24,608 bases of DNA. It comes from Candidatus Aenigmatarchaeota archaeon. Lineage in GTDB: Archaea; Aenigmatarchaeota; Aenigmatarchaeia; GW2011-AR5; JAGGXF01. Shown piece by piece: positions 10 through 24,608 of the stretch. How positions within the stretch are numbered: position 1 is the first letter of the stretch; every line of letters begins with the position of its first letter. The notes beneath the pieces are model-generated. The model was not told the DNA's origin, ran no database searches, and saw only the letters and a program-made list of their open reading frames with translations. The translations under genes and the position numbers were made by a program. The stretch covers positions 1-24,608 of the forward strand of contig JAOZPR010000011.1 in NCBI GenBank assembly GCA_029932645.1, in the 5' to 3' direction.

Positions 10-654
10 ATGGTTAACTTGACAATAAGATTAGAAAGCTTAGAAAGCAATGGAACATCTGAGGATATTAACAGGACAATCCAGATTAGTGGTGTACACG
101 AGGAAACGATAAGAAAAAATTTGACAGAAGGTCTGTGGAGGGCGGTAGTAGCTGTGAAAAGCGATGATGGAGAAAAGGCCGGACCAAGAAGCGTCGTGTT
201 TACAATAGAGGAAAAAGAGCACCGGCCGACGCAAAAACTACCCATGGACTATAGAAAGATATCAGGCCCTGGTCTGGTAGGAGAAGAGATACGAAATCCG
301 TTCGAGACAGTCAAGTATACTATAAGGAACGCGTCTTCTGTTTTTGAGTATTGGAACAATATAGAGTATCTGAGAATAGAAAAATCTTCTAACTCTGTGC
401 AAAGGACATTTGTTATTGGTGATGCTAGGCTGGAAACATTTGGAAATGTTAGCGAGCAGCGGAAAGAGCTGATATGTCCAAAGGGTATGCTGTGGACTAG
501 GCTATACAATGGTGTCACAGAAGAGAGATTTCTTGGTTATGGAGCTGAACTAGAACAGATTATGAACGAGGTTTTGGACAAGATGCAGGAAGAGATAGCA
601 AATCTGAGAGAACGCATAGAAACTGGTGACATTGATATTGATTATCAAATATAG
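10..654 (+). CDS. Hypothetical protein (214 aa), no recognisable family; may be 5'-truncated
   Basis: Long ORF with protein-like composition. The frame stays open to the window edge (cgc agc caa atg), so the true start may lie upstream. Confidence 0.7.
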   Translation: MVNLTIRLESLESNGTSEDINRTIQISGVHEETIRKNLTEGLWRAVVAVKSDDGEKAGPRSVVFTIEEKEHRPTQKLPMDYRKISGPGLVGEEIRNPFETVKYTIRNASSVFEYWNNIEYLRIEKSSNSVQRTFVIGDARLETFGNVSEQRKELICPKGMLWTRLYNGVTEERFLGYGAELEQIMNEVLDKMQEEIANLRERIETGDIDIDYQI

Positions 655-10574: not shown

Positions 10575-10669
10575 AATCCTAAAACATTACGTATCAATTA
10601 CGTTTACATTTATAAGTTTTTTTCTATTATACTAAGTTATAACAGATAGAATGCTCGTTGGGTGTTGCT

Positions 10670-11626
10670 GTGGTAAGTTTAGAAACAGAGATAGCTGGTA
10701 TAGTTCTGAAAAACCCACTCGGTTTGGGTTCTTGCCGACTTGGGTATACTGGTGCACAACTTGTTCTCGCAGCCAGACAGGGATTCGGTTTTATTACAAC
10801 AAAGTCTATAAGTGTCGAGCCGAGAAATGGGTATATACCCCCATGTATCTATAGGAAGGGGAGTTACATACTAAATGCAGAAGGTCTCCCAAACCTTGGA
10901 ATGAAACAGACTAGGAATGAAATAGATTTTTACAACAAAAAAGCTGGTAATGATAGGGTGCCTCTAGGAGTCAGTGTTTTCGGTTCTTCGGTGGAAGAGT
11001 TTCAGACCATTACCGAATATCTTGACAGCGAAGAGTTTGAGTTCTTTGAACTTAATTTGTCATGTCCTCATTCTGACCCAACAAAAAAAGAAGCGTGTTA
11101 TCTTGTTGGTCAGGACCCAGAATTGACTGCTGAAGTTGTCAAAGCTGTGCGAAAAAGGACGAGCAAGCCAATATTTGTTAAGCTGACACCTTCTGTTCTG
11201 AATATATCTTATATAGCCCAGAGTGCTGTGGAGGCGGGTGCAGATGTAATTTCGGCTACCAATACAATGCCCGCAATGGACATACACACAGAGAACGGCT
11301 TGGAGGGCAAACCTGTTTTGTCAAACATAACCGGTGGTATGTCGGGGCAGTCTCTTTTGCCTATATCACTTAAATGTGTTTATAACATTAGGGAAAAACT
11401 AACAAGAACACCTCTAGTTGGTATAGGAGGAGTTTGTAGTGGAGAAAGTTTAGTCAAATATCTTTTCGCGGGCGCAAGCGCTGTTCAAGCTGTTTCCGTC
11501 TTTTACAACGATGGCGGTTACAGCAATTTTCAGAGAATTATAGACGAACTTAAGTTGTATATGATGAAAAACGATTATGAAACAATAGGCGAAATGGTCG
11601 GGCTCACTCATAAAAAGATTAGGTAA
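10670..11626 (+). CDS. Dihydroorotate dehydrogenase family 1 / dihydropyrimidine dehydrogenase-like FMN subunit (second pyrD paralog)
   Basis: TTKS, NAEGLPN, ELNLSCPH, KLTP, ATNT, GGMSG, GIGG. Start placed at GTG 10670 after the SD GGGTG. Confidence 0.8.
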   Translation: MVSLETEIAGIVLKNPLGLGSCRLGYTGAQLVLAARQGFGFITTKSISVEPRNGYIPPCIYRKGSYILNAEGLPNLGMKQTRNEIDFYNKKAGNDRVPLGVSVFGSSVEEFQTITEYLDSEEFEFFELNLSCPHSDPTKKEACYLVGQDPELTAEVVKAVRKRTSKPIFVKLTPSVLNISYIAQSAVEAGADVISATNTMPAMDIHTENGLEGKPVLSNITGGMSGQSLLPISLKCVYNIREKLTRTPLVGIGGVCSGESLVKYLFAGASAVQAVSVFYNDGGYSNFQRIIDELKLYMMKNDYETIGEMVGLTHKKIR

Positions 11627-12441: not shown

Positions 12442-12552
12442 ATGAATGCAGATGAGCTCGAAAAGCTAACCATCAAAGAAAAAATCGGTTGTTATCTGTT
12501 TCTCCTCCTTTTAAATCAACTTTTTGTTAATAAATTAGAGGTGATTAGATGA
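12442..12552 (+). CDS. Putative 36-aa leader peptide (uORF): MNADELEKLTIKEKIGCYLFLLLLNQLFVNKLEVIR
   Basis: Translated by hand. The ATG lies about 29 nt downstream of the TATA box and the stop overlaps the argF start as ATGA. Confidence 0.35.
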   Translation: MNADELEKLTIKEKIGCYLFLLLLNQLFVNKLEVIR

Positions 12553-13466
12553 ATCTGAAAGGAAGACATTTCTTAACATTATTAGACTACAAACCAGCTG
12601 AGTTAAAAGAGATTATAGACTTGGCAATTAAGATGAAATCTGGAAAGGTTGTGAAAAAACTACCGGAAAAGACATTAGGTATGCTCTTTCAGAAGCCTTC
12701 AACAAGGACAAGAATTTCTTTCGAGGCCGGTATGACACAGCTCGACGGACATGCGATATATCTTGACTTTCGGACAACGCAACTTGGGCGAGGTGAAACC
12801 ATATCAGATACGTCAAAGGTTCTGAGCAGATATTGTGATATATTAATGGCTAGGTTGTACAAGCAAACAGATATTATAGAGCTGGCCAACGCTTCAAGCA
12901 TACCTGTTATAAATGCTCTGACTGATTTGTATCATCCTTGTCAAACAATGGCTGATATGATGACTGTTGTTGAAAAGAAGGGCAGCCTAGATGGACTCAA
13001 GATAACTTTCTTTGGTGACTGCGGTTTCAACATGTGCAACTCTACTATAATAGGCTTTTCCAAGCTGGGCGCAGATGTTGTTGCAGTCTGCCCTGACAAA
13101 GATATTTACATGCCAAATCCTGAAATACTAAATGCAGCCAAGAAACAGGCCGTGGGGTCGATAAGCGTGGAGCATGATGTGATAAAGGGAGCAGAAGATG
13201 CAGATGTTATATATACAGACACCTGGGTTAGTATGGGGCAAGAAGATGCTGAACAAAGGATAAAGGATCTAGAGCCGTATCAAGTTAACACGAAATTAGT
13301 TGGCCACGCTAATAAAGACGTTTTAGTTATGCACTGTCTGCCAGCACACCGGGGAAACGAAATAACAGACGAAGTTATAGATGGGCCGCATTCAATTGTG
13401 TTTGACGAGGCAGAAAATAGGTTGCATGTGCAGAAGGCCATTATGGTGGCTCTTCTGGGAGTCTGA
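12549..13466 (+). CDS. argF: Ornithine carbamoyltransferase
   Basis: KPSTRTR, HPCQ, DTWVSMG (ornithine-binding SMG loop), HCLP, DEAENRLH. Confidence 0.93.
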   Translation: MNLKGRHFLTLLDYKPAELKEIIDLAIKMKSGKVVKKLPEKTLGMLFQKPSTRTRISFEAGMTQLDGHAIYLDFRTTQLGRGETISDTSKVLSRYCDILMARLYKQTDIIELANASSIPVINALTDLYHPCQTMADMMTVVEKKGSLDGLKITFFGDCGFNMCNSTIIGFSKLGADVVAVCPDKDIYMPNPEILNAAKKQAVGSISVEHDVIKGAEDADVIYTDTWVSMGQEDAEQRIKDLEPYQVNTKLVGHANKDVLVMHCLPAHRGNEITDEVIDGPHSIVFDEAENRLHVQKAIMVALLGV

Positions 13467-13502
13467 TCATTGGCGATCTAACATAATTGGGATGGTGATT
13501 GA

Positions 13503-14414
13503 ATGAATAAAACAGATATAATATCAACACGAAACATGAAGAGAGATTTTATTGAAGATATCCTGAAAAGGACCAAAAAGATGGAACCGATTGCAGAAGC
13601 AAAAAAGCAGGTGGATATACTAGAAGGGAAAACTCTAGCTACCTTGTTTTTTGAGCCTTCCACCAGAACAAAACTATCTTTCATGGCAGCGATGAATTTG
13701 CTTGGCGGAACTATTATTGGTTTTGATGATCCGAGAACCTCCTCTGTGAAAAAAGGAGAAACACTCGCAGATACGATACGGGTTGTTGAGGGATACGCAA
13801 ATGCGATAGTTATGAGACATCCGAACGAAGGTGCAGCAGCATTGGCCGCAAAATTTAGCAAGGTTCCCATAATAAACGGCGGCGACGGTTCTAACCAGCA
13901 CCCAACACAGGCATTGCTGGATTTGTATACGATAATAAAAGAAAAGGGAACTCTAGATGGCTTAGAGGTGACGCTCGCGGGCGACCTGAAATATGGTAGA
14001 ACAGTTCACTCACTTGCATACGCATTGAGCAAGTTTGACGCATCATTAGTATTCTCTTCGCCGCCGTCTCTGAGAATGCCAGAGTGGATTGTTGCTGACA
14101 TCAAAGCAGCGGGTACCCCGGTTAAAGAGATTAATAACATTGAAGTACAGTCTGACGTGCTCTACTTGACAAGAATACAAAAGGAGCGGTTCCCAGATAT
14201 AGAAGAATATCAGAAGGTTGCAAGCGCATATGTCCTTGATGGAGATGCTATGGAAAAACTAGGAAAAGAGACAATGATAATGCACCCATTACCAAGAGTC
14301 AACGAAATATCAGCAGAGGTCGATAAAGACAAGAGAGCAAAATATTTTATACAATCCTTTTATGGTGTGCCAACACGTATGGCACTGCTTGCTATGGTTA
14401 TGACCGATAGGTAA
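13503..14414 (+). CDS. pyrB: Aspartate carbamoyltransferase catalytic subunit
   Basis: FFEPSTRT, KGETLADT, HPTQ, GDLKYGRTVHSL, RIQKER, HPLPR. Confidence 0.97.
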   Translation: MNKTDIISTRNMKRDFIEDILKRTKKMEPIAEAKKQVDILEGKTLATLFFEPSTRTKLSFMAAMNLLGGTIIGFDDPRTSSVKKGETLADTIRVVEGYANAIVMRHPNEGAAALAAKFSKVPIINGGDGSNQHPTQALLDLYTIIKEKGTLDGLEVTLAGDLKYGRTVHSLAYALSKFDASLVFSSPPSLRMPEWIVADIKAAGTPVKEINNIEVQSDVLYLTRIQKERFPDIEEYQKVASAYVLDGDAMEKLGKETMIMHPLPRVNEISAEVDKDKRAKYFIQSFYGVPTRMALLAMVMTDR

Positions 14415-14447
14415 GATTAAGATGATAAATGATAAGGAGGTATTGGC

Positions 14448-14906
14448 ATGGGTGAAGAATTGAAAGTTAAAAAAATCGAGAACGGGATTGTCTTGGACCA
14501 CCTACCGTGTGGTACAGCGCCGGACATCATGAAAATCTTAGGTGTAGACGACGAGACAAAAGAGACAATTAGTATCCTTATGAATGTTCCCAGCTCCATG
14601 TACGAAAAGAAGGATATAATTAAAATAGAGGGCAAGGAATTTGAGGATATAATGGTTGATAAAATAGCATTGCTGGCCCCGGGTGCAACAGTCAATATAA
14701 TAAAAGACTTTGCAGTTATTGAAAAGCGAAAAATAAGAATACCAGATGTTATTGATGTTGTTAACTGTCCGAATCCTTCTTGCATAACAAACCAGAAAGA
14801 GCCGATAAAACCAAAACTTTTGGTGGAGTTCACAAAACCACTAAAGGTGAGATGTTTTTATTGTGAGCGCGTGTTCAGCGAACAGGATGTTATGGAGAAA
14901 ATGTGA
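14448..14906 (+). CDS. pyrI: Aspartate carbamoyltransferase regulatory subunit
   Basis: LKVKKIENGIVLDH, KKDIIKIE, CPNPSCIT, CFYCE; SD AAGGAGGT. Confidence 0.96.
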   Translation: MGEELKVKKIENGIVLDHLPCGTAPDIMKILGVDDETKETISILMNVPSSMYEKKDIIKIEGKEFEDIMVDKIALLAPGATVNIIKDFAVIEKRKIRIPDVIDVVNCPNPSCITNQKEPIKPKLLVEFTKPLKVRCFYCERVFSEQDVMEKM

Positions 14907-14929
14907 TTGTCTGTCTTTTGGTATCTTCT

Positions 14930-15736
14930 TCATGCAATTTGTTTTCTATATTTGTTAATCAGTTTATAGAATTCTTCGGCAGCTTTTCTTTGGTCGTTTG
15001 CATACATGATTGCTCGGCCGATGTGGATAACTATGTTCTCTCCGGCGCTCATGAGAAGTTTTTTCACATCGCCACCCTGTGCGCCAACACCAGGACACAA
15101 AAATACTTTGTCATCACCGACAATTTTTCTAATTTTCTTAATATCATCGTCTGTTACATGACCAGTAGCACCGATTACACAACCGTCCGTTCCATTGTTT
15201 CTAATTTCTTGGGCTATTTTTTCATACAGCGGCACGCCATTATTTAATGAATCCTTTTGAATCCAAACAGATTGCGGATTGGACATGAGGGTAAGGCATA
15301 TCAAACCAAGGTCGTTTTTATGCGCCTGTTCTGTAGCTTCTTTTATGTTTCCGGCAAACGGAGAAAAAGTTAGAGCATCAAAGCCAGCCCTCTTTATCCA
15401 GTATAGAGCAGACGCATTAGTAGAGCCGATATCCCCGAGCTTGTGGTCCAGTATGCTAACGAGCCCATAGTCGTGTGCTGTTGTATTAATTTTTCTTAGC
15501 TGATTTAGTGTCAACGGAAAAAGGACGAACTGGCTGTTCGGTTTTATAGCGCACACATAATCTTTCGTGTTCTCTATAAGATCCATGCAAAAATTAAAGA
15601 AAATCTCGTTGATGACATCCGTGTCATTCGGTCTGTCTTCTGGGCTTAGCATTTTTTCAAGCGACGGGTCAAGGCCGACAGAGATTATGCTGTTTTTTTC
15701 ATTACGTGCTTTTTCATATTTTTCTATGAAGTTCAT
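14930..15736 (-). CDS. pyrF: Orotidine-5'-phosphate decarboxylase (long, subfamily 2 type)
   Basis: VGLDP, KPN, LDHKLGDIGST, PGVGAQGG, IGRAI. Confidence 0.95.
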   Translation of the reverse strand: MNFIEKYEKARNEKNSIISVGLDPSLEKMLSPEDRPNDTDVINEIFFNFCMDLIENTKDYVCAIKPNSQFVLFPLTLNQLRKINTTAHDYGLVSILDHKLGDIGSTNASALYWIKRAGFDALTFSPFAGNIKEATEQAHKNDLGLICLTLMSNPQSVWIQKDSLNNGVPLYEKIAQEIRNNGTDGCVIGATGHVTDDDIKKIRKIVGDDKVFLCPGVGAQGGDVKKLLMSAGENIVIHIGRAIMYANDQRKAAEEFYKLINKYRKQIA

Positions 15737-16404
15737 TTCTTTTCACCAGCGACCCATTTTTTATCCCATGCTATCGGATCTTTTAAGAATTTTGATACCT
15801 CGCTATATTCATCTTCTGAGAAGTATCCTTTTCTTTTTGCGAGTTCTAATGTGTTGTTCCAGTCTGTCAGCCAGAACAATTCAACACCCCACTCTTTCAT
15901 TTTTTCAACTATTACCGGTCTTCCATAGCTGAAGACTACCATACAATACTTTGGAACTCCGCCATCATTCTTTATACCATTAAAGAAATTTGTCTTGCTC
16001 CCACCGTCTGTTATGAGGTCCTCAACCAAAAGCACCCGGTCACCTTTTTTCAAAACGCCTTCAGTCTGTCTTTTTTCCCCGTGTTTTTTTGGTTCTTTTC
16101 TTACATATATCATGGGCTTTTCAATCTTTTGTGATAAAAATGCCGCATATGGTATTCCTGCTGTTGCCCCACCAGCAACCACATCTATATTTTCAAGCCC
16201 TATATCTTCTCTTACGATCTTTTCAAGCAGTTCAATTATTCGTTTTCTTTCTTGAGGAAATGAAATTATCCTTCTGCAGTCAACATAAACAGGAGAGTGA
16301 ATACCGGAAACAAAGACAAAAGGCGTTTCTATATTGGCAGAAATCGCTTTTATTTTTAGAAGTATTTCAGATACATCATCCCTTTCTTTTGGCGAAAGAC
16401 TCAT
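15733..16404 (-). CDS. pyrE: Orotate phosphoribosyltransferase
   Basis: SGIHSPVYVDCR, YVRKEPKKHG, VEDLITDGGS. Start moved to ATG 16404 (ATGA overlap with the pyrC stop). Confidence 0.95.
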   Translation of the reverse strand: MSLSPKERDDVSEILLKIKAISANIETPFVFVSGIHSPVYVDCRRIISFPQERKRIIELLEKIVREDIGLENIDVVAGGATAGIPYAAFLSQKIEKPMIYVRKEPKKHGEKRQTEGVLKKGDRVLLVEDLITDGGSKTNFFNGIKNDGGVPKYCMVVFSYGRPVIVEKMKEWGVELFWLTDWNNTLELAKRKGYFSEDEYSEVSKFLKDPIAWDKKWVAGEKK

Positions 16405-17684
16405 AATACCACCCCATCTTCCATGACTATTCGGCCATCTGCTATAGTCATAACAGGACAACCTTTTAATTTTAAACCCTCGAATGGCGACCATCCGCAC
16501 TTGGTGTAGAGGTCATCAGATTTTATTTTATGATGTTTTTTCATATCAACGACAGCAATGTCCGCATCAAAGCCCTGTTTTATATACCCTTTTTTTGCAA
16601 GCCCGAAGCGTTTTGCAGGGTTTTCACAACATAGCTGGATAAATCGTTCAAAACTAAGCAAGCGGCTGTTAACAGCATCAAGAAGCAAACCAGCCCGCGT
16701 TTCGACACCAGGAACTCCACCAGGCGCTGTCCAGACATCCTTGGACTTCTCTTCTATTGTATGCGGTGCATGATCTGTTGACACCATGTCTATAATGCCG
16801 TTATTAATCGCTGTCCAGAGCGCTGCTTGGTCTTGCTTTGTTCTGAGCGGCGGATTCATCGCCAACAGGGCTTTTTTCTCACGTATGTCAGTTTTTGTAA
16901 AGAATAGATAATGTGGGCATGTTTCTGTTGTTACATCTGCTCCATGCGACTTGGCGTTTTTAATCAGTTCAACGCCGCCTTCAGTTGTCAGATGCACAAT
17001 GTGCAGTCTTGTTTTATATGTTCCTGCCATTTTCAAAGCCTTTTCTATCGCCCTTATTTCAGACTCAGACGGTTTTGTGTCTGCATAGCTCTCAGGATGT
17101 CCTTCTATTTTTTTATTTTTCATTGCAGCTTCATTTATCTCAGGTGTTTCTGCATGAACAGCCAAAACCTCTCCGGTTTTTGAAACAGCCTGAAAAGCCT
17201 TTTCTTGTTTCGCCGAGTCTGTTAAAAGTAAGTCACCAGTGCTTTTGCACATAAACATTTTATAGCCACAGACCATGTCTTTTACTTCATCAAGAGCTTC
17301 GAGATTGTCTGGCCCGACACCAAAATATAAACCAAAGTTAACTATGGATTTCTTTTTTGCTATCTCTAATTTTTCTTTTAGCCTTTCCGGTGTTGTAATC
17401 GGCGGAACATTGTTAGGCATGTCAAGAACAGTCGTAACACCACCATGTGCCGCAGCTTTGGAGCCAGTAAGCCAGTCTTCTTTATATGTCTGACCAGGGT
17501 CACGAAAGTGAACATGTGGATCAATCAGCCCGGGTATGATTATCTTTCCAGAACAATTAATTATTTTATCCGCGTCTGTGGGATGCTGTTCTTTCGTTAT
17601 TTTTTCTATTTTTTCGCTGAGCAACAGGTTGGCATCAATAAGACGACCTTGTGTAAAAATTTTGCCATTTATTAAGGCGAGCAT
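16401..17684 (-). CDS. pyrC: Dihydroorotase (long type I)
   Basis: PGLIDPHVHFRDPG, DMPN, MNPPLR, TDHAPH; ATG 17684 after GAGGTG. Confidence 0.94.
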   Translation of the reverse strand: MLALINGKIFTQGRLIDANLLLSEKIEKITKEQHPTDADKIINCSGKIIIPGLIDPHVHFRDPGQTYKEDWLTGSKAAAHGGVTTVLDMPNNVPPITTPERLKEKLEIAKKKSIVNFGLYFGVGPDNLEALDEVKDMVCGYKMFMCKSTGDLLLTDSAKQEKAFQAVSKTGEVLAVHAETPEINEAAMKNKKIEGHPESYADTKPSESEIRAIEKALKMAGTYKTRLHIVHLTTEGGVELIKNAKSHGADVTTETCPHYLFFTKTDIREKKALLAMNPPLRTKQDQAALWTAINNGIIDMVSTDHAPHTIEEKSKDVWTAPGGVPGVETRAGLLLDAVNSRLLSFERFIQLCCENPAKRFGLAKKGYIKQGFDADIAVVDMKKHHKIKSDDLYTKCGWSPFEGLKLKGCPVMTIADGRIVMEDGVVL

Positions 17685-17705
17685 AACTTCAAACACCTCG
17701 TTCAG

Positions 17706-18527
17706 CTAACTTCTCCAGCTGTAGTATTCTTTTAGATTGACCTTTTTCCCGTTCTTCAAGCGCGCGAATTTTCCGAACTCTGTCATCTGCCTGAGCTGTT
17801 CCGAACTGAACACCGGACCATCCTTACAAACACGAAAGCCATTTATTATACACTGACCACAGACACCAAACCCGCATTTCATAAAGCGTTCAAGAGAAGC
17901 CTGCAGTGCTATATTATGTTGTTCAGTCAAATTAAAAACAGCTTTCATCATCATCTCTGGGCCGCATGTGTAAACAACATCAAATTTTTTTCGTTTCAGA
18001 AGTTCTCTTGCTATGTCTGTAGAAAATCCTTTAATACCAAGAGAACCATCATCAGTTGCTACGTATAGTTTTGAGTTCCCATTCAATCTTTCCTTGAAAA
18101 GAATAGCATCTGCTGTTTTGGCTCCGACAATAACAACAGGCTTATCAAGCATCTCGACCAGCGGAACCAGTGGTATCACTCCGCAGCCACCAGCAATGAC
18201 GCAGGCATTTTTTTGTGGTGTGAACCCGTTGCCATACGGACCTCTGATACCTACGATGTCATCAACAGACAACTCGAACATTTTTTTTGTGAATTTTCCT
18301 TTAAGTTGCACAGTTATGGCAGTGTTGTTCCCGATATAAGACAAGCTGAATGGCTTCTCACCGATTCTCGGAATCCAGAACATGATGAACTGGCCAGGCA
18401 CGGCTTCAAGCTTGGTATCAAGAAAAAATGTTTTTGTGTTATAGTTTTCATCAACTATTTTTTTTATTTTGACAGCTTTTGGCATGTCTGTACCATGCCC
18501 TGCGGTATGATCAATATTATGATTCAT
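17706..18527 (-). CDS. pyrK: Dihydroorotate dehydrogenase electron transfer subunit
   Basis: PGQF, KPFS, RGPYGNGF, CGPEMM, CGFGVCGQC..VC [2Fe-2S] motif. The start overlaps the end of pyrD. Confidence 0.94.
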   Translation of the reverse strand: MNHNIDHTAGHGTDMPKAVKIKKIVDENYNTKTFFLDTKLEAVPGQFIMFWIPRIGEKPFSLSYIGNNTAITVQLKGKFTKKMFELSVDDIVGIRGPYGNGFTPQKNACVIAGGCGVIPLVPLVEMLDKPVVIVGAKTADAILFKERLNGNSKLYVATDDGSLGIKGFSTDIARELLKRKKFDVVYTCGPEMMMKAVFNLTEQHNIALQASLERFMKCGFGVCGQCIINGFRVCKDGPVFSSEQLRQMTEFGKFARLKNGKKVNLKEYYSWRS

Positions 18528-19440
18528 GAGCAGCACCCACCAATTGTTTTATGCTGGTATAACCATTGTTATCCATCCATTCTGAGAGCTCTTCAGATAT
18601 CTTTTTGAAGACGTCTAAGCCACGATAGTATATCGCAGAGCCGATACCAACAGCGCTTGCGCCTGCCATGATCATTTCTACAGTAGCTTTTCCGTTCATG
18701 ATTCCACCTATCCCTATAACAGGTATATCAACTGTTTCATAGATGTCATAGACACAACGAATTGCAACGGGTTTTATAGCAGGACCGGACAGTCCGCCTT
18801 TCTTAAATGCCATAACAGGTTTTGCTGTCTCTATGTTTATAATCATGCCAGGGCCAACTGTGTTTATAGCAGAGATCCCGTCTGCACCAGCATCTTCGAC
18901 CGCTTTTGCTATTTCTTTAATGTCTGTAACATTCGGAGAAAGTTTCACTATGACAGGTATGGACACAGCATCTTTCACATTTCTAACCAGGCTGCTCAAA
19001 AGTTCTGGGTCACTGTAGTAAGGTTTTTTATGAATTACATTTGGGCAGGACACATTAAGCTCAATAATATCTACTCCGGCAGCTTCTCCCAGTTTTGCAA
19101 CAGTAATAAAATCCTCGTTTCTGTCCCCTATTGTATTGAGAATCAGCGGTATTTTTTTTTCTTTAACAGTCTTTATTTCTTCAATGTAATTATCTATGCC
19201 TGGGTTTGAGAGTCCGACAGCATTTATCAACCCATGCCCAAAAGACAAAACAGTCGGGTTGGCATGACCATTTCTTGATTCAATGCTTATTGATTTTGTT
19301 GTTACAGCACCAGCGCCGTTCTCATATACCCTTATCAGAGATTCTGCAGAGACGCCAAGAAAACCAGCAGCTAGTATGGTCGGATTTCTTAGCTCTGTTC
19401 CGAGTAGTGTTGTTTTTAGATTTGCTGTGATGACAGACAA
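18517..19440 (-). CDS. pyrD: Dihydroorotate dehydrogenase family 1B catalytic subunit
   Basis: TTKS, NAVGLSNPG, ELNVSCPN, KLSPN, INT, GGLSG; TTG start after GAGGTG; adjacent to pyrK. Confidence 0.95.
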   Translation of the reverse strand: MSVITANLKTTLLGTELRNPTILAAGFLGVSAESLIRVYENGAGAVTTKSISIESRNGHANPTVLSFGHGLINAVGLSNPGIDNYIEEIKTVKEKKIPLILNTIGDRNEDFITVAKLGEAAGVDIIELNVSCPNVIHKKPYYSDPELLSSLVRNVKDAVSIPVIVKLSPNVTDIKEIAKAVEDAGADGISAINTVGPGMIINIETAKPVMAFKKGGLSGPAIKPVAIRCVYDIYETVDIPVIGIGGIMNGKATVEMIMAGASAVGIGSAIYYRGLDVFKKISEELSEWMDNNGYTSIKQLVGAAHES

Positions 19441-19555
19441 TTACCACACCTCAAAAACATTTAATTTATATAATTTATTAAATTATTAAAATAGAAGAGA
19501 TGGCGATTGATATATATTAGTACTGATGTAATGATAAAGGCCATGGTGATATTAA

Positions 19556-19987
19556 ATGATAGCGCTGGGCAGCGATCATGCCGGTTTTGAACTTAAAGAA
19601 AAAATAAAGAAGTACCTAGAAGAGAAAAAAGTCGAAACAAAAGACTATGGCTGCTTTTCTGATGACCCCGTAGATTATCCTGATTATGCTGAGAAGGTTG
19701 CCAAGGCTGTTGCTAACGGTGATGCGGATAGAGGCATACTCGTCTGTGGAACAGGTCTTGGTATGAGCATGTCTGCTAATAAGTTGCCGGGTATAAGAGC
19801 AGCCCTTTGCTGGAACGAGAAAGCAGCGGAGATGAGCAGGAAGCACAATGATGCAAACGTATTGTGCTTGGGAGCAAGATTAATAGATCATACTGATGCG
19901 CTAAGGATTGTCGATGTGTGGCTCAAGACGAGTTTTGATGGCGGTAGACATATAAAAAGAGTGGAGAAGATAAATAAGATTGTTTAA
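19556..19987 (+). CDS. rpiB: Ribose-5-phosphate isomerase B
   Basis: GSDHAG, DYPD, CGTGLG, ANK, HNDANVL, FDGGRH. Confidence 0.96.
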   Translation: MIALGSDHAGFELKEKIKKYLEEKKVETKDYGCFSDDPVDYPDYAEKVAKAVANGDADRGILVCGTGLGMSMSANKLPGIRAALCWNEKAAEMSRKHNDANVLCLGARLIDHTDALRIVDVWLKTSFDGGRHIKRVEKINKIV

Positions 19988-20010
19988 TTGTTTTATAGGA
20001 GTGTTATTAG

Positions 20011-21006
20011 ATGCCAAAACTGCAGTTAGCTCTTGATTTTATAAGAGCAGAAGATGCTATCAGAATTGCTGATGCGTGCAATGATTATGTGGACTTTGTA
20101 GAGGCAGGAACACCTTTAATTAAGGCTATGGGTATGTCTGTTGTTAAAAGAACCAAAGAACAAAACCCAGACAAAGTAATTGTTGTTGACATGAAGCCTA
20201 TGGATGTGGGAAAGCTCGAGATGGAGTTGGCAATCAAAGCCGGCGCAGATGTTGTAATAATACCTGGGATTGCTCCTTTATCAACACTCGAAGAGTGCAT
20301 CAAGACTGCTGAGACAAATGGTGTTAAAGTATCCATAGGCACGACAGGGATGGAACAGTTGCTTGGTAAGGAAGAAACAATTAAGCGTATGGAAGACATT
20401 AGGTCAAAATGGCAGGGCGTTGTTATCAATCTCCCCGAAGATGCGATAAAAATATCTGGTTATGAATTCAAGTCAGCTGGTCTCGTGATTGTAAAAAAGT
20501 TAAAGGAGAAATATCCGAATAAGGTTATTGTTGCCGACTTAAAGACCATATCCAACGCAGATAAAGAATTCGAGGCAGCATTTGAAGCAGGTGCAGATAT
20601 AGCATGTATAATTGCTGCAACAACAGACGAAGAGATAAAAAAGGCTGTAGATACGGCTAAGAAATATGGCAAAAAGGTTATGGCTGACCTGATTGGCATA
20701 AGGGACCACATCGGCGAGGATGGCCTTATTCAGAGAGCTGAGCAGCTGAAAAAACTGGGTGTAGATTATATTTGTTATCATGTCCCTATTGATGATCAGG
20801 TTCGCGGTAAAGAAGTTCCACCAAAAAGCATACAAAGGATATCCGATGCTATAACTATAGCAGTTGCATGCGCAGGTGGTATAAACCAGCAAACAGCTGC
20901 AAATATTGTTAAGGCTGGCGCAGAGGTTATAATTGTAGGCGGTGCTATAACAAAGGCTCCTGATCCGGGAAAGGTCGCTAAAAAAATAAGAGAGGCTTTT
21001 TCTTAG
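20011..21006 (+). CDS. hxlA: 3-hexulose-6-phosphate synthase (HPS/KGPDC family) with an internal partial-barrel duplication
   Basis: LQLALD, EAGTPLIK, DMKPMD, AGGI, IVGGAI; lies between rpiB and phi; 331 aa against roughly 210 aa for a typical HPS. Confidence 0.85.
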   Translation: MPKLQLALDFIRAEDAIRIADACNDYVDFVEAGTPLIKAMGMSVVKRTKEQNPDKVIVVDMKPMDVGKLEMELAIKAGADVVIIPGIAPLSTLEECIKTAETNGVKVSIGTTGMEQLLGKEETIKRMEDIRSKWQGVVINLPEDAIKISGYEFKSAGLVIVKKLKEKYPNKVIVADLKTISNADKEFEAAFEAGADIACIIAATTDEEIKKAVDTAKKYGKKVMADLIGIRDHIGEDGLIQRAEQLKKLGVDYICYHVPIDDQVRGKEVPPKSIQRISDAITIAVACAGGINQQTAANIVKAGAEVIIVGGAITKAPDPGKVAKKIREAFS

Positions 21007-21071
21007 CCTATAGATAATTTTTAGTAATTAAATTCATAATTAGATATGGTGTTATAGCAAGTGGTGATATT

Positions 21072-21668
21072 ATGAAATTTGCAAAACAGGCTATAGAAGA
21101 AATTTTGAGTCATGTTAAAGACGTAACAGAAAACATTAAAGGAGAAGAAATAGAACAGCTAATGGAGTATATCATTGCTGCTAAAAGGGTTTTTGTTTAT
21201 GGTACAGGGAGATCCGGTCTTGTTTCCAAGGCATTTGCCATAAGGCTAGCGCACCTCGGTTTTGATGTTTATATCGTTGGTGAGACTATAACACCGCCAG
21301 TAACAAAGGGAGATGTCTTATTTTGCGTATCTGGCTCTGGCAGGACCGGCTCGGTTGTTTTGTTGGCGAAGACAGCCAAAGAAGAGGGAGCAACCGTGGT
21401 TGCTATAACTTCTGATGCCAACTCCACTCTTGCTCAACTCGCAGACACCTTCCTGATAATAAAGGGCAGAACAAAAAACGATATATTGAAAGAAGAAAAA
21501 GATTATCTAACAGATCAAATAAAAGGGAAATATTCACCGTTATCGCCGATGGGAACTTTGTTCGAGGACGCGTGTCAGATATTTCTGGACGGCATTATTG
21601 TCGAGCTGATGAATAGAACTGGGAAGACTGAAAGGGATCTCAGGTCAAGACACATGAATATGGAATAG
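21072..21668 (+). CDS. hxlB: 6-phospho-3-hexuloisomerase (SIS domain)
   Basis: GTGRSG, RLAHLG, VGETITP, SGSG, PMGTLFE, C-terminal RHMNME. Confidence 0.93.
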   Translation: MKFAKQAIEEILSHVKDVTENIKGEEIEQLMEYIIAAKRVFVYGTGRSGLVSKAFAIRLAHLGFDVYIVGETITPPVTKGDVLFCVSGSGRTGSVVLLAKTAKEEGATVVAITSDANSTLAQLADTFLIIKGRTKNDILKEEKDYLTDQIKGKYSPLSPMGTLFEDACQIFLDGIIVELMNRTGKTERDLRSRHMNME

Positions 21669-21676
21669 GGGTTATA

Positions 21677-22237
21677 TTATCTTTTACAGACTTTTAGAAA
21701 ATTCTCAAATATTTCATAACCGTATTCAGTATTTTCAACTTCTGGATGAAACTGGACACCATACAAAGGTCTTCTTTTATGTTTCATCGCTTGGATTGGA
21801 CAGTTTATAGAATGTGCTAATATCTCAAAGTTGGGACATGCCTTAACAATGTCATTGTGGGATTCCCAGACCGTAAACTTTTTGGGCAGGCCGCGAAAGA
21901 GGTCATCCTCCTTATCGACGATTATCTCCGCCTTTCCATATTCCGGCGTATCTGCTGCTGCGACACTACCACCAAAACAAAGAGCCATCAACTGATGACC
22001 AACACATATCCCCATTATCGGTCCATTAAAGTTTTCAATATAGTTTTTACAGTATCCAAGCTTCTCCACCTCTGATATAATTCTTGGAGCGCCACCAGAC
22101 AGCACAAGAGCATCTGCATTTATTTTTTCTAGTGGCACTGTATTGGAAATTATTTCTGTGTCGCATCCAAGATATTTTAACACACGATATTCTCTATGTG
22201 TCCATTGTCCGCCGTTGTCAACAACCAAAACACGCAT
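21677..22237 (-). CDS. guaAA: GMP synthase subunit A (glutamine amidotransferase)
   Basis: VDNGGQWTHR, LSGG, GICVGHQ, QFHPEV. Start moved to ATG 22237. Confidence 0.94.
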   Translation of the reverse strand: MRVLVVDNGGQWTHREYRVLKYLGCDTEIISNTVPLEKINADALVLSGGAPRIISEVEKLGYCKNYIENFNGPIMGICVGHQLMALCFGGSVAAADTPEYGKAEIIVDKEDDLFRGLPKKFTVWESHNDIVKACPNFEILAHSINCPIQAMKHKRRPLYGVQFHPEVENTEYGYEIFENFLKVCKR

Positions 22238-22264
22238 GATAATCACTTTTCATTAGTCCTTTCA

Positions 22265-23224
22265 TTATTCAAACTCTATTGTAGCTGGAGGCTTGTTTGT
22301 TATATCGTATACAACCCGGGTGACTTTGTCTTTCAGAACATTTGTTATTCTGGTTGAAATTTTCTGTAGTATTTCATGCGATATTTTACTATATGCTGCA
22401 GACATGCCATCAATACTATCGACAGCCCGGATAACTATTGTATACCCATATGCTCTTACATCACCATGCACGCCAACACTTTTCGTCGGTAGCAGAACAG
22501 CAAAATATTGCCATGGTATCTCTATTTTACCTTTTTCAGCCGCTGCTTCTATTTCTTTTTCTAGGATAAAAGAGGCCTCTCTTATAATATCCACTTTTTC
22601 TTCCGTAACCTCCCCAACTATTCTTATAGCAAGGCCTGGGCCAGGAAATGGTTGTTTTGTATATATCTTTTTTGGTATGTTCAAAGCTTTTCCAACATTT
22701 CTTACCTCATCCTTATACAAATCTCTCAATGGCTCCACAAGCTTTAGCCCCATTTTTTCAGGCAAGCCACCAACATTATGATGCGCCTTTATCCTGTTCC
22801 TTATTCCACCGCCAGACTCTATCCAGTCTGGTGCTATTGTTCCTTGTGCCAAATACTCTGCCCCGAAATCTTCTGCTACTTTCTCGAAGATTTTTATAAA
22901 AAGCTCACCACATATCTTTCTTTTCTCTTCTGGATCGCGGACACCTTTCAGGGCTGATAAAAATTTTTCTTTGGCATCTACAATCTTCATATTCAGTTTC
23001 AGCTCTTTACCAAGTTCTTGCATTTGTTCTGTTTCGTTTTTTCTCATAAATCCGGTGTCGACAAAAACGCACAGAAGTCTACTACCGACAGCCTTGTTCA
23101 CAAGAGCTGCCACTGTTGTCGAGTCCACACCTCCAGACCAAGCTAGTATTACCTTTCCTTTAACATCTGTTTTTATCTTTTCTATAGCATCTTGGACAAA
23201 AATTTTTGGGTCAAAACCAAGCAT
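22265..23224 (-). CDS. guaAB: GMP synthase subunit B (ATP pyrophosphatase)
   Basis: SGGVDS PP-loop, QGTIAPD, HHNVGGLP, PFPGPGLAIR, KPPATIEFE; ATG 23224 after AGGTGA. Confidence 0.95.
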   Translation of the reverse strand: MLGFDPKIFVQDAIEKIKTDVKGKVILAWSGGVDSTTVAALVNKAVGSRLLCVFVDTGFMRKNETEQMQELGKELKLNMKIVDAKEKFLSALKGVRDPEEKRKICGELFIKIFEKVAEDFGAEYLAQGTIAPDWIESGGGIRNRIKAHHNVGGLPEKMGLKLVEPLRDLYKDEVRNVGKALNIPKKIYTKQPFPGPGLAIRIVGEVTEEKVDIIREASFILEKEIEAAAEKGKIEIPWQYFAVLLPTKSVGVHGDVRAYGYTIVIRAVDSIDGMSAAYSKISHEILQKISTRITNVLKDKVTRVVYDITNKPPATIEFE

Positions 23225-23264
23225 AGACTTCACCTAAAGTTTTTTTGTTGACTAAAGTTTTGTA

Positions 23265-24302
23265 TCAAAGCTCTATATTATATTCTTCTATAGTGATTTT
23301 TTTGGTTTTATCTACCTCACCGATGACATCTGCAGCTGTGCCATATTTCTCTGCGATTCTTATTATTTCTTTTTCTTCTTTTGCTATCACACAAAAACCA
23401 ACACCCATGTTAAAGGTTCTGAACATTTCCTTGTCTTGGATTTTTCCAAGCCGCTTTATCTCAGAAAATATTTCAGGTATTGGCAAGAGTTTTTCTATTT
23501 TATAGCCGACGTTTTCGTTCAGTCTCCTTATATTAAGAAAACCACCACCAGTTATATGAGCAAGGCCGTGAATGTTTTCAAAGTCGCTTTTGATCATCTC
23601 CAACACAGGCTTTACATATATTTTTGTTGGTGTGAGAAGTTCTTCGGCGACTGTTTTACCCCATGGTAGAATATCATTTATTTTATATTTTTCAAAAATA
23701 ACCTTTCTCGCCAAAGTCAAACCGTTCGTATGAATGCCAGAACTGGCCAAGCCGATTATTTTATCTCCCGGCTCTATTTTATCGCCTACAATTATTTTAT
23801 CTTTCTTCACAAAGCCCAACGCAGCACCAGCCAAGTCAAATCCCTTATGGTCGATACCTCTTATTACATCTTTCAATGTTGCTGTCTCACCACCGACTAT
23901 TACTATATTTGCCTGTTCTGCGCCCTTCAGAAGCCCAACTCCGATTTCTTTCATTATATCTGGGTCTGTTCTTTCCATTGCCAGATAATCGACAAGTGCT
24001 ATTGGTTCTGCGCCCACGCAAATGATATCATCGACATTCATCGCAATCATGTCTATTCCGACAGTATCGTATTGATTGGCTAGCTGTGCTACTAGAACTT
24101 TTGTTCCGACGCCATCTGAGGACAGAACAAGATATTTATCGCCGAAATCTACGAAGTTGGCAAAATGACCGATTTCAGCTTTTGGTTCTCCTATTTTACC
24201 TTTTCTGAACGCAAAGCTTTTTTTAACAACATCTACTAGGCTCTTTATAGATTCTGCCTCTTTATCTATATCAACACCAGCTTTTGCATATGTTGTTACC
24301 AT
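23265..24302 (-). CDS. purM: Phosphoribosylformylglycinamidine cyclo-ligase (AIR synthetase)
   Basis: YAKAGVD, DGVGTK, GGETA, SSGIHTNG, HITGGG, FNMGVG; ATG 24302. Confidence 0.96.
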   Translation of the reverse strand: MVTTYAKAGVDIDKEAESIKSLVDVVKKSFAFRKGKIGEPKAEIGHFANFVDFGDKYLVLSSDGVGTKVLVAQLANQYDTVGIDMIAMNVDDIICVGAEPIALVDYLAMERTDPDIMKEIGVGLLKGAEQANIVIVGGETATLKDVIRGIDHKGFDLAGAALGFVKKDKIIVGDKIEPGDKIIGLASSGIHTNGLTLARKVIFEKYKINDILPWGKTVAEELLTPTKIYVKPVLEMIKSDFENIHGLAHITGGGFLNIRRLNENVGYKIEKLLPIPEIFSEIKRLGKIQDKEMFRTFNMGVGFCVIAKEEKEIIRIAEKYGTAADVIGEVDKTKKITIEEYNIEL

Positions 24303-24333
24303 TCTAGCTGCCCCCAACCAAAATTAAATACCT

Positions 24334-24608
24334 TTAAATACCTAGCTTTGATCTCCAAAAGCGTACAGCTTCTTCTGTTTTGTCTGAGGCAGTTCCAGTG
24401 TAGTTTTCCACCTTTTCAAGTATTTTTTTTCTATCTTCTGGAATACTATCCAAAAGTTTTTTTATTTTTTCATCTTTTTTAATCAGTTCAGAAAGCGGTG
24501 TGCCACTTTTTAGCGCCTCGTTTACAAGATTTTTCACATATTTGTGGGCATTGATATGCCCGCCCATTGCGAGCATGATATAGACAGGTTCTGCCAGAGC
24601 AGTACCAG
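24334..24608 (-). CDS. purB: Adenylosuccinate lyase, C-terminal part (truncated by the window edge)
   Basis: The frame is open to the window end: ...GTALAEPVYIML..GH..AH...ENYTGTA, resembling the PurB C-terminus. Purine gene context supports this. Confidence 0.7.
   Translation of the reverse strand, partial: GTALAEPVYIMLAMGGHINAHKYVKNLVNEALKSGTPLSELIKKDEKIKKLLDSIPEDRKKILEKVENYTGTASDKTEEAVRFWRSKLGI

Follow-up and report, generated by a model that had tools for sequence, protein, structure and literature searches.

We describe an HPS gene in the window (the whole stretch of DNA analysed, 24,608 nucleotides) whose 331-residue product contains an internal half-barrel duplication (Table 1). The product probably works as a single-chain pseudo-dimer, in which a half-barrel is predicted to dock in the place of the partner subunit and likely donates Asp65 to one composite active site. 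Each active site of the OMPDC-suprafamily enzymes is built from two subunits. HPS is a homodimer with shared active sites, and the partner Asp serves HPS and KGPDC as it does OMPDC. Judged by its sequence, the protein studied here is a variant of HPS and not a plain member, because the DxKxxD motif is not intact on the barrel: its last position is Ser181, which is never Asp in 12/12 family sequences. No description of this half-barrel form was found in the literature library searched, which is incomplete.

Table 1. Position of the HPS gene, its parts and its neighbours in the window.
Feature	Position	Strand	Evidence or remarks
rpiB, ribose-5-phosphate isomerase B; opens the rpiB-hps-phi cluster	19556-19987	+	PF02502, E 1e-63; TIGR01120, 201.8 bits (cut-off 138.65)
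HPS with internal half-barrel duplication, 331 aa	20011-21006	+	ORF, profile, repeat scan, model, superposition
aa 1-37, intact beta1-alpha1-beta2 of the catalytic barrel	20011-20121	+	Asp9, Glu31, Thr34
Copy 1, aa 38-131 (alpha2-beta3-alpha3-beta4-alpha4-beta5-alpha5)	20122-20403	+	predicted looped-out half-barrel, stand-in for the partner subunit
Donor loop Pro63-Met64-Asp65-x-Gly67-x-x-Glu70	20197-20220	+	Asp65 codon 20203-20205
Thr92, the third of the residues that copy 1 alone retains	20284-20286	+	12/12 in copy 1, 0/12 in copy 2, 99% in plain HPS
aa 132-153, re-entering the barrel; likely what is left of an eroded beta6 (to Pro142) and of a second beta2, also eroded (145-148)	20404-20469	+	
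Copy 2, aa 154-247, predicted beta3-beta5 of the catalytic barrel	20470-20751	+	6-residue insertion after beta5
Asp176 (copy 2)	20536-20538		
Lys178 (copy 2)	20542-20544		
Ser181 (copy 2), in place of the last Asp	20551-20553		
Asp226 (copy 2)			
aa 248-331, beta6-beta8	20752-21003	+	His257 and glycines 289, 290 and 310, each 11/11; fits the 3AJX table of PMC5980557
phi (hxlB), 6-phospho-3-hexuloisomerase	21072-21668	+	TIGR03127, 198 bits (cut-off 160)

The ORF scored 265.6 bits with TIGR03128 (cut-off 200), two stretches being summed, and Pfam and NCBIfam each found two HPS stretches in it. In the genomes of four relatives, the same cut-off was passed by no single stretch. The site residues that the table of PMC5980557 gives for 3AJX (D8, E30, T33, D59, K61, D109, H134, G165 and G186) all have counterparts here (D9, E31, T34, D176, K178, D226, H257, G289 and G310). 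An identity as KGPDC (UlaD/SgbH) was rejected: the E112, R139, T169 and R192 of that table are absent, with D226, I260, A288 and G311 in their stead, and NF009831 and NF009832 scored below cut-off. OMP decarboxylase was rejected as well, as Glu31 and not Lys stands at the end of beta2 and the scores were 60.8 against 92.3 for TIGR01740 and 85.8 against 208 for NF010386; a separate pyrF lies at window positions 14930-15736. The protein shares its predicted barrel fold, the site residues and the phi neighbour with plain HPS (3AJX; 3F4W; the HPS-PHI fusion 9LJ9; TIGR03128). Unlike these, it has a 116-residue insertion copying alpha2-beta5, a His-x-Pro in place of His-x-Gly (Gly136 of 3AJX), six extra residues after beta5 and a DxKxxD motif split over two copies, whereas D-x-K-x-x-D-x-G-x-x-E was whole in 218/218 plain HPS.

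An earlier note on this DNA had described a diverged repeat at an offset of 116 residues. When the ORF was compared with itself at all offsets, one strong repeat was indeed found, and the best off-diagonal segment paired aa 38-131 with aa 154-247 at this offset. Its ungapped BLOSUM62 score was 146, compared to a maximum of 54 and a mean of 32.9 in 300 shuffles; between aa 38-130 and aa 154-246, 31/93 residues and 134/279 bases were identical. D60, K62, D65, D176, K178 and S181 occupy the positions that the note gave. The duplication is partial, as claimed, but beta2 and beta6 are probably not confined to one copy: the model has a strand at 145-148, likely an eroded second beta2, and a likely beta6 remnant ends at Pro142, which is invariant. 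Residues 132-153 are in register with aa 248-259 and aa 28-37, with a weak signal at the sequence level. The unit that was repeated thus probably extends further, over about aa 28-143 and 144-259, with beta2 duplicated too and then eroded; outside aa 38-131, where profile scores are near zero, the basis is this register and the model only. Misassembly, thought unlikely before, was rejected because 12 family sequences have the same architecture and a contig of 409 bases from another study covers positions 20196-20604 across the junction with 0 differences (one of four runs gave such a bridging piece).

These 12 sequences came from homologue searches. In the protein search, with 8,000 candidates scored, P0002-P0007 showed the same architecture at 49-75% identity and ranked ahead of plain HPS; further members came to light when contigs were scanned and longer proteins were searched. 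By the depositor labels of the assembled genomes, the relatives stem from Ca. Aenigmatarchaeota (L001, 75% identity), Ca. Nanohalarchaeota (L002), an uncultured bacterium (L003), Syntrophaceae (L004 and L005) and Ca. Omnitrophota (L006). The 12 rows of the counted alignment are not independent, as P0007/L003 and L004/P0123 are close pairs. Left out were L006 (only the first 100 residues match, followed by unrelated sequence), L030 (frame broken upstream; near P0007), L005 (from the same genome as L004, and a C-terminal part) and L001, L002, L027 and L028 (close copies of P0002 and P0004). A search of 1.84 billion representatives returned the partial members P0252 and P0259, the fragments P0268 and P0360, and P0249 (= L004). 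Among 201 genomes of the phylum, the long form was present in 2 and a plain-length match in 8; because of this patchiness, the half-barrel HPS gene has likely moved sideways.

The free proteins have 331-342 residues. In a fused form of about 970 residues, the half-barrel HPS is joined to two PHI-like domains and one more HPS-like barrel, and it also occurs within giant ORFs of over 3,000 and of 17,786 residues (the latter L003); PHI-like fusions were seen in P0007, L003, L005, L029, P0123 and P0124. The extra full barrel of the 970-residue fusions (P0123, P0124, L005:424-1047) keeps Asp/Gly/Thr but neither the beta2 Thr nor the His, a donor-like state, and the two PHI-like domains follow it. 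In L003 and L029:4001-5131, the half-barrel module and tandem PHI-like domains lie inside the giant ORFs. The match in L006:6001-6300, also in a giant ORF, consists of the first 100 residues only, at 70% identity, and this half copy shows that such modules can erode. DGG motifs recur in L006 and L029; none were found in the examined part of L003.

To compare the two copies, we took the positions conserved in at least 90% of 227 single-barrel HPS and recorded which copy keeps each. Asp65, Gly67 and Thr92, present in at least 99% of the plain proteins, were found in copy 1 of all 12 sequences and in copy 2 of none, and P63, D65, G67 and E70 were invariant in copy 1. Conversely, copy 2 was fixed (12/12) at each of the sites equivalent to positions 48, 59, 60 and 62, which copy 1 kept in 0/11, 3/12, 5/12 and 10/12, respectively. 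As the note had stated, copy 2 retains D176-x-K178 and has lost the last Asp: D176 and K178, like D226, were present in 12/12, and position 181 was Asp in 0/12. An intact D-x-K-x-x-D was therefore not found on beta3 of the catalytic barrel, its last Asp occurring only in copy 1 as Asp65. For copy 1, a full DxKxxD and a missing beta5 Asp had been reported; both are true of this protein and neither is a family trait, since position 60 is Asp in 5/12 and Glu in 7/12, position 62 is Lys in 10/12 and Leu in 2/12, and Asp110 on beta5 is kept in 9/12. The drift of Asp60 and Lys62 strengthens the case for a division of labour; such a division predicts which residues each copy should hold constant, and the pattern in the family agrees. 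In the N-terminal part, Asp9, Glu31 and Thr34 were kept in 11/11, 10/11 (Gly in P0004) and 11/11. Counting two partial relatives, Asp65 was retained in 13/14: P0259 has it and stops before the copy-2 motif, and the exception, P0252, has Asn at 9, 65 and 176 together and is likely a dead, inactive member. Sequence comparison further argues that copy 1 is not decaying, because its mean identity is 0.53 compared to 0.56 for copy 2 and its dN against L001 is 0.20 at a dS of 1.03 (barrel: dN 0.14, dS 2.11, near saturation).

The AlphaFold2 prediction of the single chain, made with the 12-row alignment, reached a pLDDT of 92.7 and a pTM of 0.91. It consists of one complete (beta/alpha)8 barrel of the HPS type, assembled from separated parts of the chain, and a rigidly placed half-barrel; the insert was confidently positioned. 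The predicted barrel comprises aa 1-37 and 154-331, with Asp9, Glu31, Thr34, Asp176, Lys178, Asp226, His257 and the phosphate glycines, and the predicted extra domain comprises aa 38-153, with the eroded second beta2 coming after beta5 in the sequence. The barrel superposed on the HPS structures (3AJX, 3F4W, 9LJ9) at 1.4-1.6 Å over 200-207 residues; for 3AJX, 207/207 residues aligned at 1.6 Å, starting at residue 2. Within the barrel, the count of identities to 3AJX fits copy 2 and not copy 1, which together with the model indicates that copy 2 completes the barrel and copy 1 is looped out, as the note had proposed. This topology is discriminated by one structure, 3AJX, because with 3F4W and 9LJ9 a hand count gave a difference of just 2 identities between the two topologies, and AlphaFold2, having been trained on HPS/KGPDC dimers, could place the insert by analogy.

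In the proposed mechanism, the internal duplication would span beta2 to beta6. The short helix that follows beta2 would be the point where the chain leaves and re-enters the barrel, and the linear tandem repeat would fold as a permuted swap: the intact first beta2 would pair with copy 2, whereas the sheet of copy 1 would be completed by the second, eroded beta2. Copy 1 would then present Asp65 to the site formed by Glu31, Asp176, Lys178, Asp226 and His257, giving one active site per chain, and each copy would have shed what only the other copy needs. In OMPDC, D96' of DxKxxD comes from the second subunit and its Ala variant had no detectable activity, according to PMC12874384; HPS Asp64 stands at the same aligned position in Table 1 of PMC5980557.

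The same split could operate between chains, either in a domain-swapped dimer or by pairing of the open half-barrel edges, so that the enzyme would still be an oligomer. We regard this as unlikely. The residue pattern is the same in cis and in trans, the four-stranded half-barrel has an open edge and the insert folds alone in the prediction, but the single chain already gave a high pTM with the insert confidently on its own barrel, and an intramolecular site would be simpler in ORFs of several thousand residues. Still less probable is a purely structural cap that shields the former dimer face, with Asp65, Gly67 and Thr92 kept for packing and catalysis proceeding without the last Asp. All three residues could be interface residues, and the need of HPS for a partner Asp is extrapolated from OMPDC; however, Asp65 was never replaced by Glu or another residue in 12/12, while the nearby Asp60 became Glu in 7, and the sole exception, P0252, has lost Asp9 and Asp176 too.

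The search of longer proteins also revealed aldehyde:ferredoxin oxidoreductase (AOR) fusions of about 990 residues that end in two HPS barrels, and free full-tandem forms of 353-395 residues were found too. In the full-tandem HPS (P0125-P0131), the first barrel keeps Asp/Gly/Thr and lacks the beta1 Asp, the beta2 Thr and most His and phosphate residues, and the second is complete apart from the last Asp (7/7 in each respect). On inspection, the donor of P0262, from the same family, is cut to roughly the same core as the insert. P0125-P0131 and P0262 thus resemble the half-barrel family in that the donor Asp/Gly/Thr is split from a barrel without the last Asp, but their eroded donor barrel lies ahead of the complete barrel, whereas here the insert lies within it. 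The tandem layout was rejected for our protein, whose donor is the 116-aa insert after beta2. From the beta5 Asp to the His, the tandem proteins have 25 residues (7/7) and the half-barrel family 31 (10/10).

In a tree with the motif columns, copy 2 nested among the tandem catalytic barrels (97/86). Without these columns, and with L029, P0050 and 24 other plain rows left out, copies 1 and 2 grouped against the other 40 rows (SH-aLRT 92). In a tree of the C-terminal part alone, the two families separated, and a joint clade was not rejected (p-AU 0.094). The longer stretch after beta5, seen in copy 2 and apparently in copy 1, points to duplication within this lineage, and two independent origins seem likelier than one. 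Gene elongation by internal duplication of beta-alpha units is known from HisA/HisF, where two halves make one barrel. Such units are duplicated here as well, but the barrel is already complete in the prediction; the extra half stands apart from it and would take over from a second subunit.

The gene is flanked by rpiB and phi, with all three on the same strand, amid purine and pyrimidine synthesis genes. The order rpiB-hps-phi, and with it the linkage to phi/hxlB, recurs in L001; in L002, phi is not adjacent. In the host genome (G000), this gene is the sole HPS, the other PF00215 match being pyrF. Searches of G000, which is 89% complete, gave no transketolase, transaldolase, 6-phosphogluconate dehydrogenase, RpiA or PfkB; PRPP synthase and FBP aldolase/phosphatase are present. 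A reverse ribulose-monophosphate route is known for archaea. Since no other pentose route was found, this route would be the evident source of ribose 5-phosphate in G000, which argues that the enzyme works though its barrel is without the last Asp. Together with PHI and RpiB, it would convert fructose 6-phosphate to ribulose 5-phosphate and formaldehyde, and then supply ribose 5-phosphate for nucleotide synthesis. Counting against this role, G042, one of two genomes with giant-ORF relatives, has transketolase. To the last reading, in which the protein is no longer an HPS and catalyses a related, KGPDC-like enediolate reaction or serves in binding or regulation, we give little credence: the His-x-Pro, the insertion after beta5, the promiscuity of HPS and KGPDC described in PMC5980557 and the lack of an AOR for formaldehyde removal among the G000 ORFs would suit it, but Asp226, Ile260, Ala288 and Gly311 form the HPS signature and not that of KGPDC (Glu112, Arg139, Thr169, Arg192), the gene sits between rpiB and phi with relatives fused to PHI-like domains, and G000 has no second HPS.

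Several features of the surroundings were recorded. In this archaeal genome of 0.72 Mb, pyrC, pyrD, pyrK, pyrF, guaA (in two parts) and purM are clustered in the window at 16401-24576; de novo pyrimidine/purine clusters are unusual for small host-dependent archaea. Two dihydroorotate-dehydrogenase-family genes lie within 9 kb, at 10658-11626 (+) and 18517-19440 (-), and the former may be a paralogue with another substrate. A tandem pair of carbamoyltransferase-family genes, followed by pyrI, occupies 12549-14906 (+). The ORFs at 10-654 (+) and 14903-15247 (+) had no Pfam match; the latter, which may be spurious, overlaps with pyrF on the other strand. Next to the relative in L002, the ORF at L002:7025-8722 (-) looks on inspection like a 6-phosphogluconolactonase / glucose-6-phosphate dehydrogenase fusion.

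If the single-chain pseudo-dimer is real, it would be a natural experiment in which the contribution of a subunit can be told from what it takes from its partner. Conservation in the family points to Asp65, Gly67 and Thr92 as the donor residues, and about four strands of a partner would suffice. Unlike in a homodimer, mutations could be placed in either half of DxKxxD on its own within a single chain, and a monomeric HPS may be handy for engineering formaldehyde fixation, where it could be fused with PHI or methanol dehydrogenase. A wider reading, which we put forward tentatively and with rather more doubt than confidence, is that this is a naturally monomeric, active member of the OMPDC suprafamily of otherwise obligate dimers, whose beta2-beta6 duplication, folded as a permuted swap, is a built-in four-stranded partner; that the donor/acceptor split evolved twice, the second time independently in the AOR-linked tandem HPS; and that the one-chain form let HPS function as part of multi-enzyme fusions and giant polyproteins and pass between bacteria and archaea with small genomes. 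For protein evolution, it would be a clear case in which quaternary structure gave way to a partial duplication, a step apparently taken twice within one enzyme family.
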